Below, piece after piece: positions 2,769 through 62,348 of a DNA stretch of 64,000 bases (the stretch's first letter is position 1; each line of letters starts with the position of its first letter). The DNA comes from an uncultured Clostridia bacterium (GTDB lineage: Bacteria > Bacillota > Clostridia > TANB77 > CAG-508): positions 7,512-71,511 of the forward strand of contig CANQXD010000002.1 in assembly GCA_947627755.1 (NCBI GenBank), given 5' to 3'. The notes beneath the pieces were generated by a model that worked only from the letters and a program-made list of their open reading frames with translations, was not told the origin of the DNA and ran no database searches. Made by a program: the position numbers and the translations under genes.

Positions 2769-2814
2769 ACCAATTGTCCCAATTGGAACAATTGGGGACT
2801 GTCCCAAATTGTCC
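2769..2814. repeat. GGGAC-core repeat element (type C variant, nested palindromes)
   Basis: ACCAATTGTCCCAATTGGAACAATTGGGGACTGTCCCAAATTGTCC. Contains GTCCCAATTG/CAATTGGGGAC and GGGGACTGTCCC inverted repeats. Ends 4 nt from the stop of the 2819..3766 gene. Confidence 0.7.
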
Positions 2815-2818
2815 TTTT

Positions 2819-3766
2819 TTAATTTCTTAGTGGCTCTAAGCCAGATAATACCCACGTGTTAGCACCTGTTGTAATTATGCTTCCACAATATGGACATTTT
2901 CCTGCTGACGTAATTTGTGTTGGCGCTCCACAGTTTGGACAGTTAGTAGTTTTTACTTGTTCTGCTCCTTCTTGTGTTAGCACCCCTGTTTTTCTTTCAA
3001 AGGTCATTTTATAGACTGTTGTTCTATCTTGTGTTTTGCTTCCTTCTAGTAGTTCTTTTGTAGTTGCATCTATAATGTAGTCTTTCATAGTAGATTTTAA
3101 TGCAATTTCTAAAATGTCCCTATCGCCTTCTTGTCTAAATTTATAAATTGTTGCATAATTTACTGCAATACGGTCCATTACGTTGATACGATTGGTGTCT
3201 ATATAACCTTGTACTTGGTTTTTGTGTTGTTCAAATAAACTTTCTGTTTCAAATGGTCTCATTGGTTCCCAGTCTCTTGCTGTCCATGCATTTTGTAATT
3301 TCACAAATAAATCTTTTGCCCAAGATAACATTTTTTCTTCTGAGAAGTTTGGATCTATTTGCTTAATTTGGTCTACGTAAATGTGTGATTGGCTAACATC
3401 TACTATTGGTGTATGTCTTACTGCTTGATTTCTATAGTATGGTATGTTTCTTGGCCCCCTTGGTCCTGTATTTCTGCTTTTGATTACTCTTATTATAATG
3501 TAAATGATGATAATAAGAAAAGCTCCTCTTCCTACATTGTTTCCTAATAGCCATCCAATTAAGAAAAATAAGTCACCACTGGAACTTGAGCTGCTTGAAC
3601 TCCAGTCAGAGTCCCAATCGGAATCCCAACTAGAAGAACTAGAACTCCAAGAAGAACCTCCGCTATCATAGCGGTCAAAACTTCCTACATCTGCAAACGA
3701 TAAGGTGTGCAAAGCAAAAATAAGTACAATGCTTAGAATAAAAATTCCTATTTTTCTTTTTTTCAT
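2819..3766 (-). CDS. Membrane protein with Ser/Trp/Asp-rich segment, Tim44-like C-terminal region and zinc ribbon
   Basis: Signal/TM MKKRKIGIFILSIVLIFALHTLSFA, then the low-complexity stretch SSWSSSSSSWDSDWDSDWSSSSSSSSG, then a second TM. The C-terminus has CPNCG-x13-CPYCG. The Tim44-like assignment rests on pattern memory only. Confidence 0.55.
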   Translation of the reverse strand: MKKRKIGIFILSIVLIFALHTLSFADVGSFDRYDSGGSSWSSSSSSWDSDWDSDWSSSSSSSSGDLFFLIGWLLGNNVGRGAFLIIIIYIIIRVIKSRNTGPRGPRNIPYYRNQAVRHTPIVDVSQSHIYVDQIKQIDPNFSEEKMLSWAKDLFVKLQNAWTARDWEPMRPFETESLFEQHKNQVQGYIDTNRINVMDRIAVNYATIYKFRQEGDRDILEIALKSTMKDYIIDATTKELLEGSKTQDRTTVYKMTFERKTGVLTQEGAEQVKTTNCPNCGAPTQITSAGKCPYCGSIITTGANTWVLSGLEPLRN

Positions 3767-4020
3767 TTGTTTTGCCTCCTCTTATGTTTTATTTTTTATT
3801 ATATTTACGTTTGTTTCCTATACTTTAATCATACACTTTTTTAGGGAATTTTGTCAATCGTTTTTTATTACCTGTTTTGGTGAACAGAGGAAAAAAGAGG
3901 TCTCCAAAAATAGGTTTGACATTTTACTTTTCTTATATTAGAATAGATTTCGATTTTAGTAATAGATTTATTCTTATATTGTAAAAATTAGTTAGTAATT
4001 TATTTAGAAGGAGTTTCATT

Positions 4021-4512
4021 ATGATAAAAAAATATTTATTAGTTTTTTTAGTATCTATGATACCACTAATTGAATTAAGAGGTGCTGTTCCTATTGGCTT
4101 AAGTACTCTTTTAGGCGACCCCCTTCCTTTGATTCCTCTTTACATTATTTGCATTATAGGAAATATGCTTCCTGTTCCTATTATCTTTTTCTTTGCAAGA
4201 AAAGTTTTGTTATGGGGTGCAAATAAAAAATTTATAGGGAAGTTCTTCCGCTTCTGCATTGAAAAGGGCGAAAAAGGCGGTAAGAAGTTACAAGAAACTG
4301 CAGGCTCAGGATTATATTTTGCCTTGTTTCTTTTTGTAGGAATTCCTCTTCCTGGAACAGGGGCTTGGACAGGAACGCTTGCTGCTAGCTTTTTAGATAT
4401 GGACTTTAAGAAAAGTGTTATTGCTGTTATGGCAGGTGTTATTTTAGCCGGTATTATTATGGGGCTAGCTTCTGCTGGCGTTTTCGGTGCTTTAGGTGCA
4501 ATGATTAGTTAA
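4021..4512 (+). CDS. Small multidrug-export-like membrane protein (COG2426 family)
   Basis: 163 aa and polytopic. The N-terminal MIPLIELRGAVPIG motif is typical of this family. RBS GAAGGAG lies upstream and a terminator follows. Confidence 0.7.
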   Translation: MIKKYLLVFLVSMIPLIELRGAVPIGLSTLLGDPLPLIPLYIICIIGNMLPVPIIFFFARKVLLWGANKKFIGKFFRFCIEKGEKGGKKLQETAGSGLYFALFLFVGIPLPGTGAWTGTLAASFLDMDFKKSVIAVMAGVILAGIIMGLASAGVFGALGAMIS

Positions 4513-4533
4513 AGAAATTATTTTATCTTCGCC

Positions 4534-4566
4534 AAAAAATCGGTAGTGTTTTACTACCGATTTTTT
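4534..4566. terminator. Rho-independent terminator (bidirectional, between convergent genes)
   Basis: AAAAAATCGGTAGTGTTTTACTACCGATTTTTT. Confidence 0.8.
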
Positions 4567-4619
4567 AGGTTAAAAGGAGTTTTTATTTTATATTAAAAAA
4601 TTGTTTTTCCTATTAAAAT

Positions 4620-60390: not shown

Positions 60391-60633
60391 TTTAGTTTCC
60401 TCCTCATTTATTGGATGATTTACGGATACTTTTTGAAAAATAAATTACTTTTTCTTTTTTTATTTATATTTGTTTTTAGAATAGTTTTTCTTTTTTCTTT
60501 GGAGTACTCCTTTTTATATAAAAGAGTTCTATTCTTTTTACAACTTAAACATAAGATAATTCATTTTTCTATTTATAGTATGTGTCTTTTTATTTTTCTT
60601 ATACTTCTATAAATTTTCCAATGTTGCTTTGCG

Positions 60634-60682
60634 AATGTACCTTTGGGGACGTACCTTTGGGGACGTTTCCTAAAGAGACATT
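60634..60682 (+). repeat. GGGAC-core repeat element (type B with internal 14-nt tandem duplication, flipped orientation)
   Basis: AAT GTACCTTTGGGGAC GTACCTTTGGGGAC GTTTCCTAAAGAGACATT. Confidence 0.8.
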
Positions 60683-60789
60683 TACATCTAATTGGTAGAA
60701 AATAAAAATTATAAAAAGAAAAAACCTATAAAAATGCAAAAATTAGCTGTATTTTACATTTTTTATTAAATAATGACTAAAAACAGGAA

Positions 60790-60823
60790 AATGTACCTTT
60801 AGGAAACGTCCCTAAAGGTACAT
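60790..60823 (-). repeat. GGGAC-core repeat element (type B hairpin, perfect 13-bp stem)
   Basis: AATGTACCTTTAGG AAACGTC CCTAAAGGTACAT. Ends 1 nt from the ypeB stop. Confidence 0.85.
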
Positions 60824-60824
60824 C

Positions 60825-62234
60825 TTACATTGTTAAGGTGCCGTTTGGTGTGTCTCTTATGACTAAGATGTCTTCTTCGTTTCCGGTTTGCGCATTGATA
60901 TATACTAAAAATTCAGTTCCTTCTATGGTTCCTTTGAATTCCCAACAGAAGATTTCTGTTTGGAATTCGGTTGGTATGACTGCTAAATTTTCGCTTCGAA
61001 TGTCTAATGTTGGATTTAAGTTTTGTTTTGCTTCTTCTTTGGTTATTTTTACTTCTGGTAAGTTTCTTTCTTGATGTGAGTTTAGATATCCTGTTGTTTC
61101 TATTCCTAGTATTTCTCCGTTGTCTAATGCTATTTTTAGTTTTATTAAGTCAGGATACATAGTGACTTCACCATTTTCTGTTTGTTGATGATATGCATAG
61201 TTTATTGTTACTACTCCGCTTTGTTTTAAATAGTAAGTTTCTTTCATGTTTGGAAATCCTTTTGCATTTAGGAGGTTTTTTCCAATTTCATTTGCTCTTT
61301 CTTGTGATATTGTTTCTGCTTCTACTTCTCTATTATAGTTCATAAATACAACGTGTCCGCCTTTTTGAGTAATGGATATGATAAGGTTGTTATTTTTGTC
61401 TTTTTCATTGTTTAAAGTAATGTAGAAGTCATAAGATGGCATATCTGTGTTGCTGGTTAGTCCTTGTGATGTTATTTCTTTTATTTTGTCTTGTCCTACA
61501 AATTCTACTGCAACTTGTTTTGCTTGTTCTTCACTTATTTCTTCTCCGGTTAGTCCTTTTTTTTGCGTTGATGTTATATGTTCTGAAAAGGCTCCATCGT
61601 AGATTAAACCTGCATATTCGTGGAAGTTTTCTTCTAGGTTATTGAAGCTATCTTTGGAAATGTTGCTTACTTGTGCTGCAAATACACTGCTTCCTTTGCT
61701 TGTTAATTCTCCCCATTTGATTCTTCCGTCATTCATGTCTGCAGATAGTTGATTTAATGTGTTTTCTAATTCTATACTATAGTTATGCAATTCTTTTAGA
61801 TTGTCAAAATCTTCTTGGGTTAGTTCCTCTTTATATATATTTTTTCTCGAAAGACTAAAACTATAATCACTTACTTGGTTTAAAAATTTGGAAGTGTTGG
61901 CTAATTCTTGCGATCCCATTGGAAGTCTTCCTAAATAGCTTTGCGCTAAGTTTGCTTCTCTCCATAAGTGTGTTAGTGTTTCTGCTCCATGCTCTGGTGT
62001 GCTAGATATTAGTGATTTTGCTAAATATACTTCTACATTTTGCACATAGTCTACTAATTCAAAAAATGCCATGTTGTATTCGTTTTCTGTCATTTGTCGA
62101 TAGTCTCTTTCTCTTTTATACGTATAAATTCCAAGTATTGCAATTACTGCTACTAGTGTTACTACCAGTGAAAGCATCTGTCTGTCTTGCAAACGATTTT
62201 TCCAATCATAAATTTTTTCTTTGATTTTTCCCAT
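60825..62234 (-). CDS. ypeB: Germination protein YpeB
   Basis: N-terminal TM, the YpeB-type N-domain (NEYNMAFFELVDYVQNVEVYLAKSL...LWREANLAQSYLGRLP), and C-terminal PepSY-like repeats. It lies directly downstream of sleB. Start set to ATG 62234. Confidence 0.85.
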   Translation of the reverse strand: MGKIKEKIYDWKNRLQDRQMLSLVVTLVAVIAILGIYTYKRERDYRQMTENEYNMAFFELVDYVQNVEVYLAKSLISSTPEHGAETLTHLWREANLAQSYLGRLPMGSQELANTSKFLNQVSDYSFSLSRKNIYKEELTQEDFDNLKELHNYSIELENTLNQLSADMNDGRIKWGELTSKGSSVFAAQVSNISKDSFNNLEENFHEYAGLIYDGAFSEHITSTQKKGLTGEEISEEQAKQVAVEFVGQDKIKEITSQGLTSNTDMPSYDFYITLNNEKDKNNNLIISITQKGGHVVFMNYNREVEAETISQERANEIGKNLLNAKGFPNMKETYYLKQSGVVTINYAYHQQTENGEVTMYPDLIKLKIALDNGEILGIETTGYLNSHQERNLPEVKITKEEAKQNLNPTLDIRSENLAVIPTEFQTEIFCWEFKGTIEGTEFLVYINAQTGNEEDILVIRDTPNGTLTM

Positions 62235-62294
62235 GTAATTTCTTTCCTTTCTCATATTTCTATTTTTTATCTTTTGTTTTTAATTTTTTACTAA

Positions 62295-62348
62295 TGGGGT
62301 GTCCCAAATGGCAATTAATTGCCAAAAAAGGGCGTCCCAAATGGCAAT
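62295..62348 (-). repeat. GGGAC-core repeat element (type C variant)
   Basis: TGGGGTGTCCCAAATGGCAATTAATTGCCAAAAAAGGGCGTCCCAAATGGCAAT. The 15-nt direct repeat GTCCCAAATGGCAAT occurs at 62301-62315 and 62334-62348. The 14-nt palindrome GGCAATTAATTGCC lies at 62310-62323. Abuts the sleB stop. Confidence 0.8.

Follow-up and report, generated by a model that had tools for sequence, protein, structure and literature searches.

Systems in which repetitive extragenic palindromes (REPs) go together with a REP-associated tyrosine transposase (RAYT) are known mainly from Proteobacteria. Repeats that resemble REPs are described here from an uncultured Clostridia bacterium, in a stretch of 64,000 nt (GenBank assembly GCA_947627755.1, contig CANQXD010000002.1, positions 7,512 to 71,511 of the forward strand). 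This stretch is called the window, and coordinates refer to it unless a relative is named. An earlier, sequence-only reading had picked out at least 11 places sharing a GGGAC core and CC-W3-4-GG words and had likened them to REPs, to bacterial interspersed mosaic elements (BIMEs), to DNA uptake sequences (DUS) or to RNA elements of 3' untranslated regions (3' UTRs). We conclude, with a probability of about 0.8, that they are REP/BIME-like short imperfect-palindrome repeats of the kind called TIRtrons, and that they also serve as the terminal inverted repeats (TIRs) of a Y1 transposase gene of the TIRYT type (subclass 2.1, group 1). The repeats form a family with a common architecture and compensated stems, are placed at gene boundaries and retained in orthologous spacers and, in related genomes, bracket a Y1 transposase gene with a conserved neighbourhood.

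TIRtrons, or TIRYT loci, are RAYT-like genes flanked by long inverted repeats, many of which share the sequence GGGGWSAS, and some have moderately abundant families of dispersed repeats (Di Nocera, De Gregorio & Rocco 2013, PMC3733652); that work names neither Clostridia nor Firmicutes. Most TIRYTs fall in subclass 2.1 of TnpA_Y1, which is marked by the class-2 signature Y---NP together with a Bac_DnaA_C, HTH_23 or HTH_28 domain at the C-terminus (Quentin et al. 2018, PMC6006769). Clostridia are among the hosts of group 1 RAYTs, and the 16-mers that flank these were of low frequency only (Bertels et al. 2017, PMC5581495). TIRYT, TnpA_Y1 subclass 2.1 and RAYT group 1 are probably one and the same, the largest RAYT-related group, and the surveys found few or no repeats associated with it (PMC5581495, PMC6006769).

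The repeats and their build

The window has a G+C content of 29.5% and almost all of its long open reading frames (ORFs) lie on the minus strand. Each of the 11 stretches was found in its place with the words ascribed to it (sequence check over the 64-kb window), giving a density of about one locus per 6 kb. The repeat unit (U) is about 16 nt long and reads X-CC-W3-4-GG-RRAC, where X is a variable foot of 3-6 nt, and it is combined with its own inverse (U'). The arrangement U-U' is a simple hairpin (B type in the window) and U-U-U' is the A type; U'-U-U' comprises the C and D types and is the common form in metagenome-assembled genomes (MAGs) from mouse. The elements and their surroundings are as follows, with the evidence for each in brackets.

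2769..2814, no strand assigned: divergent element of three units, GTCCCAATTGG / CAATTGGGGAC / GTCCCAAATTG (sequence, unit regex; covariance match at 2781-2824, E=9e-4; RNA fold z -2.1 and -2.6 on the two strands); occupies the whole spacer from the stop of a Tim44-like gene (2819..3766) to the ribosome-binding site (RBS) of an SPFH gene (1460..2734; Pfam).
4620..4701, plus strand: C type, GGGGTGTCCCC, inner hairpin CGTTCCAAAATGGAACG, then AAAAGGGGCGTCCC (direct repeat with 57339-57385, 87% identity; fold -26.6 kcal/mol, z -5.2), with a weaker CAAATGGCAAT word in 4620-4654; overlaps the stop (4699-4701) of a histidine kinase gene (4699..6762; Pfam HisKA/HATPase_c).
16392..16448, plus strand: A type (U-U-U'), GTACCAAAAGTGAC AGAT GTACCAAAAGGAAAC GTCCCCAATGGTAC, with a 10-nt tail duplication (repeat search, covariance 73 bits); 0 nt from the spoIIE stop (16449; Pfam SpoIIE), with a distal terminator hairpin at 16349-16371.
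39625..39722, minus strand: A type with extra duplicated modules, CACTCCATTGG x2 and TTTTGGTAGG x2 (repeat search, covariance 66 bits; RNA fold no better than shuffles on either strand, z about 0); 35 nt downstream of a cotF-like gene (39758..40093) and about 150 nt upstream of an M23 peptidase gene (38488..39477).
40159..40193, plus strand: B type (U-U'), AATGTCTCTTTAGG AAAC GTCCCTAAAGGTACATT (repeat search; fold z -4.2 and -4.3); the stop of a 62-aa ORF (40195..40383) is 1 nt away, and the cotF-like gene (39758..40093) follows downstream.
44522..44574, plus strand: A type, 96% identical to 16393-16439 (repeat search, covariance 74 bits); between the B-type copy listed next and a distal terminator-like hairpin (about 44447-44495).
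44583..44617, plus strand: B-type hairpin (repeat search), the right arm of which encodes the final codons and TAG stop of a ZIP zinc transporter gene (44605..45357, stop at -7; Pfam Zip).
57337..57396, plus strand: C type (repeat search; fold z -5.2 and -4.1); downstream of ddl (57404..58465), with a terminator-like hairpin farther on (about 57215-57250).
60634..60682, minus strand: B-type hairpin with one unit doubled, GTACCTTTGGGGAC x2 (repeat search, covariance model); left half of an inverted doublet with 60790-60823, the arms of which (60648-60696 and 60776-60824) are 80% complementary.
60790..60823, plus strand: B-type hairpin (repeat search; fold -22.1 kcal/mol, z -6.8); 1 nt from the stop (60825) of ypeB (60825..62255), and right half of the doublet 60634-60824.
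62295..62348, plus strand: D type (U'-U-U'), GGGGTGTCCCAAATGGCAAT TAATTGCCAAAAAAGGGC GTCCCAAATGGCAAT (sequence, covariance E=0.011); 0 nt from the stop of gene 62349..62825, upstream of ypeB.

A repeat search given no prior information recovered three sub-families from the window:

Family A: 16393-16439, 44528-44574 and 39662-39716 (reverse complement).
Family B: 40156-40198, 44580-44622, 60787-60829 and 60648-60684 (reverse complement).
Family C: 4658-4704 and 57339-57385.

The family that had been proposed is real and its enrichment is far above that in shuffled sequence. The exact 18-mer core AGGAAACGTCCCYAAWGG occurs seven times in the window and not once in 100 dinucleotide shuffles; GTCCC..GG unit words number 14 against 0.8 in shuffles, and CC-W-GG-RRAC words 10 against 0.9. 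The tandem duplications of modules are also as first described. A covariance model of the three-unit form, built from related copies in other genomes, matched only the listed loci in the window, with E<0.05 at 44517, 16382, 39654, 2781, 60788/60764, 62309 and 60632; it rates simple hairpin (B) and C-type copies poorly (E 1.6-3) and is incomplete as a census tool. The model left unmatched both of the stretches put forward as possible decayed copies, 14645-14700 and 16269-16287. The latter, AATGTGCCTTTAAAGGTAT, looks like two B-type hairpin arms fused without the GGAAACGTCCC centre and could be a deletion footprint or chance. The GGGACG/CGTCCC hexamer had been counted 11 times, always within an element and never within a gene. 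Eleven do lie in elements, but the window holds 14, two being inside ORFs (49519 and 52913) and one, the sole intergenic hexamer outside the elements, at 54036 in a 17-nt spacer (54029-54045, between genes 54046..54615 and 53684..54028). The coding strand of this spacer reads GGGGACG, which probably serves as a Shine-Dalgarno sequence.

In a scan of one genome per species, the core was present in at least 109 stretches from at least 32 uncultured Clostridia/Clostridiaceae MAG species (mouse, rabbit and human gut); five single matches in high-GC taxa look like chance. The three-module architecture was seen across 129 distinct 18-mer core copies from about 32 Clostridia MAG species, and the core is strongly conserved in more than 30 species, with variable flanks.

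Pairing was assessed in 51 gapless three-unit copies. The outer arms (M3:M1) pair in 82% of cells, compared with 28-48% in slid controls, and 40 cells show double-sided compensation, compared with 23 +/- 3.8 in shuffles, none of 500 of which reached 40. Complementary feet are plain in the alignment (TTCCC/GGGAA, GTACC/GGTAC, TGCTCC/GGAGCA and TGTCC/GGACA). The repeats are imperfect palindromes with compensated stems. An inner-hairpin model (M2:M1) was also tried for the three-unit copies and was set aside, as its 62% of paired cells is weaker than the 82% of the outer arms. When the window copies are folded as RNA, z lies between -2 and -6.8 on both strands with no consistent asymmetry (39625-39722 excepted), and this near-equal folding speaks for a palindrome at the level of DNA and against an RNA motif tied to one strand. 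Copies with AAA and ATT loops showed no apparent association with 5' or 3' context in the part of the set inspected by eye.

Some copies contain tandem runs (L014 226-263, L031 about 740-813, L041 5345-5407 and L105 967-1035; loci of relatives are given by number), in which CCCCAAAAGGGACAGATA is repeated three or four times, TATTCCCAT three times, or a whole hairpin is duplicated over 31 nt; this indicates that modules expand locally. Inverted doublets like 60634-60824 were found in L007, L013, L016, L030, L038, L039, L050 and L063.

Gene boundaries and orthologous spacers

Copies were oriented with GGAAACGTCCC reading left to right, the right end being the outer end. It is this end that abuts an ORF boundary, either a stop codon or the position just ahead of a Shine-Dalgarno sequence. 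The stop of a converging ORF lies within -11 to +3 nt of the right end in 30 copies, mostly at 0 or -1, and of the left end in only two; the stop is 3-4 nt before CC in 25 of the 39 stop-adjacent copies. Where the right-hand neighbour is on the same strand, the element ends right ahead of its Shine-Dalgarno sequence. Among 119 copies from about 30 species, 44 lie behind a stop, so that the bottom strand is transcribed, and 42 before an RBS, so that the top strand is transcribed. With neither arrangement commoner than the other, context decides which strand of the element is transcribed, and the window shows almost only the after-stop arrangement because its genes all run one way. The proximity to stop codons reported earlier is tighter than had been claimed, with 40159-40193 too lying 1 nt from a stop, and the two orientations already noted in the window are equally common throughout the family. 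The description as a 3'-UTR element holds for the window but not for the family as a whole, half of whose copies are in 5' leaders.

No conserved insertion target or target duplication was found at the RBS-adjacent ends. The stop-adjacent ends are TAA or TAG, with TAG weakly over-represented (15 of 39; background 24%, p=0.03) and TGA not significantly depleted. Terminators had been proposed distal to the elements behind the histidine kinase gene, spoIIE, the ZIP gene (zupT) and ddl. All four are visible by eye, but a consensus terminator scanner flags only that of spoIIE (16349-16371, on the plus strand only), the others failing its stem or loop rules.

The comparison of orthologous regions that had been suggested was made with syntenic loci for nine window elements, in species 70-92% identical. 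For eight of these nine testable loci an element is present at the same gene boundary in other species; 39625-39722 is shorter in L066 and absent from L083 and L052, where a plain terminator stands instead. Orthologous copies differ in their feet and even in orientation or unit make-up, and each is like the other copies of its own genome, with feet such as GTACC in the window, TTCCC in CAMXOP and TTAACC in a MAG from Nepal. Behind spoIIE, L080 has a copy with different stems. Behind the ZIP gene, L083 has one copy rather than two, the difference being the 41-nt core-to-core spacing. The ddl copy 57337..57396 is identical in L001 and L002, and a diverged copy occupies the same place in L056. 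The latter locus also has a remnant, GCTCCGTCCCCAAAAAC, at the ypeB stop and an orthologous copy at gene 62349..62825 in which the stem ATTGCC/GGCAAT has become ATTAACC/GGTAAT. A diverged element is found at the histidine kinase stop in L082, and the cotF spacer element is present in L066, L052 and L083, with the orientation in the first two opposite to that of 40159-40193 and the element abutting the RBS. These comparisons suggest within-genome turnover or conversion at long-lived sites.

When 40159-40193 is set against L066 3818-3855 (a 90% identical relative), the centre GGAAAC|GTCCCC is in the opposite orientation and the feet are AATGTNYC versus TTACC; this could be either a flip of the palindrome or an independent replacement. 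The C-terminus of the ZIP protein (..AMSL*) is encoded in the window by ATG TCC CTT TAG within the hairpin arm (44601-44620). In L083 (about 2690-2712) the end of the gene, ATG TCA CTC TAA, is separate and the element follows it, with a 10-nt indel relative to the window and the peptide unchanged.

The transposase gene between inverted copies

A search for a RAYT- or IS200-like tnpA had been advised. All ORFs in the fetched loci were screened for an HUH...Y pattern, which gave three matches between elements, and a Y1/HUH gene lies between two inverted copies in eight loci of relatives (L037, L019, L081, L112, L113, L116, L119 and L121). In all eight loci examined the outer ends of the bracketing elements face away from the gene. 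The left element abuts or overlaps the stop of the upstream gene, and the right element overlaps the 3' end of the transposase gene and abuts the RBS of the next gene. The REP/BIME-like reading was thus right and is now tied to a cognate Y1 transposase.

The protein is matched by Pfam Y1_Tnp (E=6e-13 to 1e-15), and the best NCBIfam model is 'REP-associated tyrosine transposase' (NF047646), with 61 bits against an equivalog cut-off of 80. HVH and the catalytic YIHKNP are invariant in 30 homologues; at the C-terminus HTH_23, a helix-turn-helix (HTH) domain, is found in 22 of them and HTH_28 in 11. A PDB sequence search (phmmer) with the transposase gave no match. The fold search, with an AlphaFold (AF2) model of pLDDT 87, gave as best match 4ER8 (TM 0.71, E=3e-6), which is the E. 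coli REP-associated transposase in complex with a REP hairpin, followed by IS608 and ISDra2 TnpA. At E<=1e-10 the family counts 571 metagenomic members. Of 120 listed homologues, at least 32 end in a C-terminal tail whose codons lie in the right-hand repeat (..QKGQITQKETSPM, ..KGTDVTKRNVPN). Such repeat-encoded tails occur in two frames (..EMYQKGQITQKETSPM.., ..NEAKGTDVTKRNVPN..), for instance in P0009, P0019, P0027, P0040, P0056, P0068, P0072 and others, and at 6746-6807 in L112/L113.

In six of the eight loci the transposase gene is directly upstream of radA-disA, down to 49% protein identity, and in five of these six the genes for RNase J and GH15 are upstream of it; L121 has different upstream genes. 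In L112-L121, where the gene runs from 5001/6001 onward, no more than a few nt separate the end of the right-hand repeat from the start or the Shine-Dalgarno sequence of radA. The transposase gene of L037 and L019 is instead found between pth and an RNase G-like gene (rng). The homologue in L081 (5939-6591, minus strand; MAG MGBC107383) was recovered as two overlapping tblastn pieces (6591-6502 and 6514-5939), which suggests a frameshift, so this copy may be a pseudogene. The more distant transposase of L116 is accompanied by a variant repeat core, e.g. GGCCTGTCCCCAATGGGAC.

The 64-kb window contains no homologue of the transposase. Its best nucleotide matches are MAGs of uncultured gut Clostridia, and the Ddl protein was matched only on two ENA metagenome contigs. 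By Pfam, the genes adjoining repeats encode SpoIIE, YpeB, CotF, a ZIP transporter, a histidine kinase and D-Ala-D-Ala ligase (Ddl). Sporulation genes are plentiful: beside those for SpoIIE, YpeB and CotF, a small ORF at about 60215-60391 (minus strand; MGRKSSMMSENLKEEIAKELGVYEQVKQDGGWQN...) looks by eye like an alpha/beta-type small acid-soluble spore protein. The 62-aa ORF at 40195-40383 (minus strand; MANLTQIELQNLRHLIG...), which is below the 100-aa limit of the ORF list, immediately precedes the CotF-domain gene, and both L066 and L083 conserve it; the two genes probably form an operon that is split by the hairpin 40159-40193. Within ORF 41363..42967, the minus strand at 41865-41962 gave a sub-threshold Rfam match to n00280, a C. 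difficile small RNA (36.7 bits against a gathering threshold of 65, E=0.028), which is probably due to chance or coding-sequence similarity.

Nature of the family

The inner repeat ends GGGGACAC and GGGGACAG and the C type of the window fit GGGGWSAS, and for this reason the family is filed under TIRtron/TIRYT. The first of these ends is the reverse complement of GATGTGTCCCC in L119 and is also what the left end of 4620..4701 reads in reverse complement; the second is from L116. The same check on the reverse complement of 4658-4668 gives GGGGACACCCC. The most conserved outer core, GGGGACGT, deviates from GGGGWSAS at position 7. As in TIRtrons, a RAYT-like Y1 gene with long inverted repeats is present, in eight loci of different lineages and not within the window, and the repeats overlap the 3' end of that gene; dispersed repeats occur as singles, dimers and clusters (11 loci in the window, at least 109 stretches in all, doublets in eight loci). 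The homologues have the Y---NP and HUH motifs and the C-terminal HTH of subclass 2.1, an assignment by motif and domain make-up, and the Clostridial protein resembles TIRYTs in being longer than classical RAYTs, with a C-terminal HTH_23/HTH_28-like domain. Unlike published TIRtrons, the family is hosted by uncultured low-GC gut Clostridia, is denser (11 loci in 64 kb), shares an 18-nt core among more than 30 species and a modular 16-nt unit, has its outer end flush with stops or RBSs, and has its gene fixed upstream of radA.

The repeats also resemble the REP/BIME elements (REPINs) of E. coli and Pseudomonas in being short imperfect palindromes in transcribed extragenic DNA, in both orientations, with mosaic clusters and inverted doublets. 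As in a REPtron, a Y1 gene, which here may likewise be single-copy and vertically inherited, is flanked by repeats, here at the radA-disA site in six of eight loci and at a second site between pth and rng, and 4ER8 is the best structural match of the Clostridial protein. That protein differs from REPtron enzymes in its extra HTH domain, its score under the equivalog cut-off and its host, a Firmicute rather than a proteobacterium; and, unlike in REPs, it is the foot of the stem that varies between copies and the loop and junction core that are conserved. With IS200/IS605 insertion sequences and their gene-less derivatives, palindrome-associated transposable elements (PATEs), the family has in common the HUH/Y1 fold, subterminal hairpins, here probably recognised on single-stranded DNA as well, and the lack of target duplication. 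It differs in its motif (Y---NP), in having no tnpB and in occupying one conserved chromosomal site rather than occurring as many identical copies, and no conserved flank corresponding to the tetra- or pentanucleotide target of IS200/IS605 was found at the element ends.

Intergenic repeats are also known from Gram-positive bacteria, namely pneumococcal BOX/RUP, S. aureus STAR and B. cereus bcr1. Like the present family these are modular or GC-rich short repeats in AT-rich genomes, gene-adjacent and co-transcribed; unlike it, none is known to be linked to a Y1 transposase, and their sequences are unrelated, with no common core. CRISPR repeats, integron attC sites, diversity-generating retroelements and LacI-type operators were set aside too: no arrays are present, the adjoining genes serve housekeeping and sporulation, and the copies are too numerous.

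Every copy in the window falls in a transcribed spacer, with a stop on one side and a terminator or the next RBS on the other, and the copies form stable hairpins with compensated stems; eight of nine sites are kept across species, and the spacing to the stop is sharply 0/-1 nt. Host cis-acting RNA signals, such as a stabiliser, a processing site or attenuator hairpins bound by an RNA-binding protein, which selection would have placed at ORF boundaries, would have these properties, and the link to the transposase would then be incidental or historical. This we consider improbable. The orientations are equal (44 against 42), so the RNA sequence differs between contexts, folding shows no consistent strand asymmetry, the long copy 39625-39722 folds no better than shuffles, and the same sequences are the inverted termini of a Y1 gene in all eight loci examined. 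The Rfam search that had been suggested returned no family, with zero matches at the gathering thresholds and, in E-value mode on the elements, only a chance-level SAM-II at 4630-4672 (E=0.38). A strand-specific RNA motif as the primary nature of the repeats is out, as the orientations are equally frequent and both strands fold. That the hairpins are ordinary or degenerate Rho-independent terminators is hardly credible, even though they occur downstream of genes and the copy 40165-40187 is flagged by a terminator scan: this copy and the tail of 16434-16449 alone pass the intrinsic-terminator rule, most copies have no T-tract, separate terminator hairpins stand distal to the elements, half of the family is upstream of RBSs in leaders or operons, and terminators would not share an 18-nt core among unrelated genes and species.

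Miniature inverted-repeat transposable elements (MITEs) of a DDE-type insertion sequence, inserting at TA or TAR targets, would account for the TAA or TAG flush with the end of the stop-adjacent copies, and the doublet 60634-60824 and those in eight other loci resemble units of 100-300 bp bounded by inverted repeats. However, the RBS-adjacent ends have neither a target-site duplication nor a conserved flank, the terminal 3-6 nt vary between copies, unlike MITE termini that a transposase must recognise, and the gene between the inverted copies encodes a Y1/HUH enzyme and not a DDE transposase, which makes this origin highly improbable. The strongly conserved core with its variable flanks in more than 30 species, and the dyad symmetry of that core, might be expected of sites for a DNA-binding protein unrelated to transposition, whether uptake sequences, nucleoid-protein sites or a LacI-type operator (GGAAACGTYCCC, which is dyad-symmetric and has CG at its centre). 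One locus per 6 kb or so, mostly behind genes, is ill-suited to an operator, and uptake sequences are single short words that lack both compensated variable stems and a three-unit architecture; nothing was found in support of the DUS reading. The transposase linkage already explains the conservation and neither idea was supported by any test, so we give such sites very little weight.

Several points weigh against the TIRtron assignment that we prefer. No REP-like sequences were reported beside subclass 2.1 genes (PMC6006769), so either this clade is exceptional or the subclass assignment, which uses motif and domain make-up only, is imperfect. The NCBIfam score of 61 bits is under the equivalog cut-off of 80. 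The canonical REP tag GT[AG]G is absent, with no GTAG or GTGG at either foot in the consensus of the 51 aligned copies, and GGTAG is found only in the 39625-39722 copy. The controls behind the count of compensatory cells keep the shared ancestry of the copies, which inflates such counts. The transposase of this particular genome is inferred from relatives, and neither recent identical copies nor empty/filled site pairs with clean junctions turned up that would testify to current mobility. The retention of orthologous sites and the exact 0/-1 nt spacing to stops are both unexpected for mobile DNA that is purely selfish.

By analogy with TnpA_REP and IS200/IS605 TnpA, the Y1 enzyme would recognise the hairpin on single-stranded DNA and would cut and rejoin it at or near the conserved GRAAC|GTCCCC junction. 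On this analogy the transposase would move the repeats, dispersing, replacing and locally duplicating units, which would account for their mosaic make-up, the tandem modules and the genome-specific homogenisation of stems. The doublet 60634-60824 has its outer ends pointing outward, in the geometry of the transposase loci, with no gene between. Copies might be kept wherever the host tolerates them or gains from them, namely in transcribed spacers where the outer end is flush with an ORF boundary, 0-1 nt after a stop or right before a Shine-Dalgarno sequence, and would be co-transcribed as RNA hairpins in either orientation. REPs near stop codons reportedly affect translation of the upstream gene (a result attributed to Liang, Rudd & Deutscher, 2015). 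The present repeats probably have a secondary role of the type proposed for REPs, as protectors of mRNA ends or as modulators coupled to translation or transcription.

The Clostridial family is new, although its class is not. No description of it or of its core was found in the literature searched, and a full-text search with the core as DNA or RNA returned unrelated primers only. The sequence-only reading was correct that the family itself had not been described, but the class had been, as TIRYT/TIRtron repeats with GGGGWSAS (PMC3733652) and as subclass 2.1 TnpA_REP (PMC6006769). Group 1 / subclass 2.1 / TIRYT thereby gains an abundant and easily recognised repeat family, spread over dozens of species of uncultured gut Clostridia and unusually regular in its placement, flush with ORF boundaries, kept at orthologous sites and homogenised within genomes. 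Annotators of these MAGs have a name for a frequent intergenic feature, and the family explains why the transposase and some neighbouring genes have odd C-terminal tails. Worth following up are its flush placement at ORF boundaries and, secondly, the retention of sites together with homogenisation within each genome. A bolder idea, which we regard as doubtful, is that the repeats and the transposase are not a decaying selfish family and instead form a domesticated, host-maintained partnership, in which the hairpins would act as gene-boundary punctuation, held at the same boundaries through divergence at the genus level and constantly rewritten in each genome to its own version of stem and loop, presumably by the radA-linked Y1 enzyme working on single-stranded DNA. 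If this were true, the group 1 / subclass 2.1 relatives of RAYTs, so far obscure in function and in their repeat partners, would gain a concrete role and a tractable system. The family provides a natural system for asking what such transposases and hairpins do for their host.

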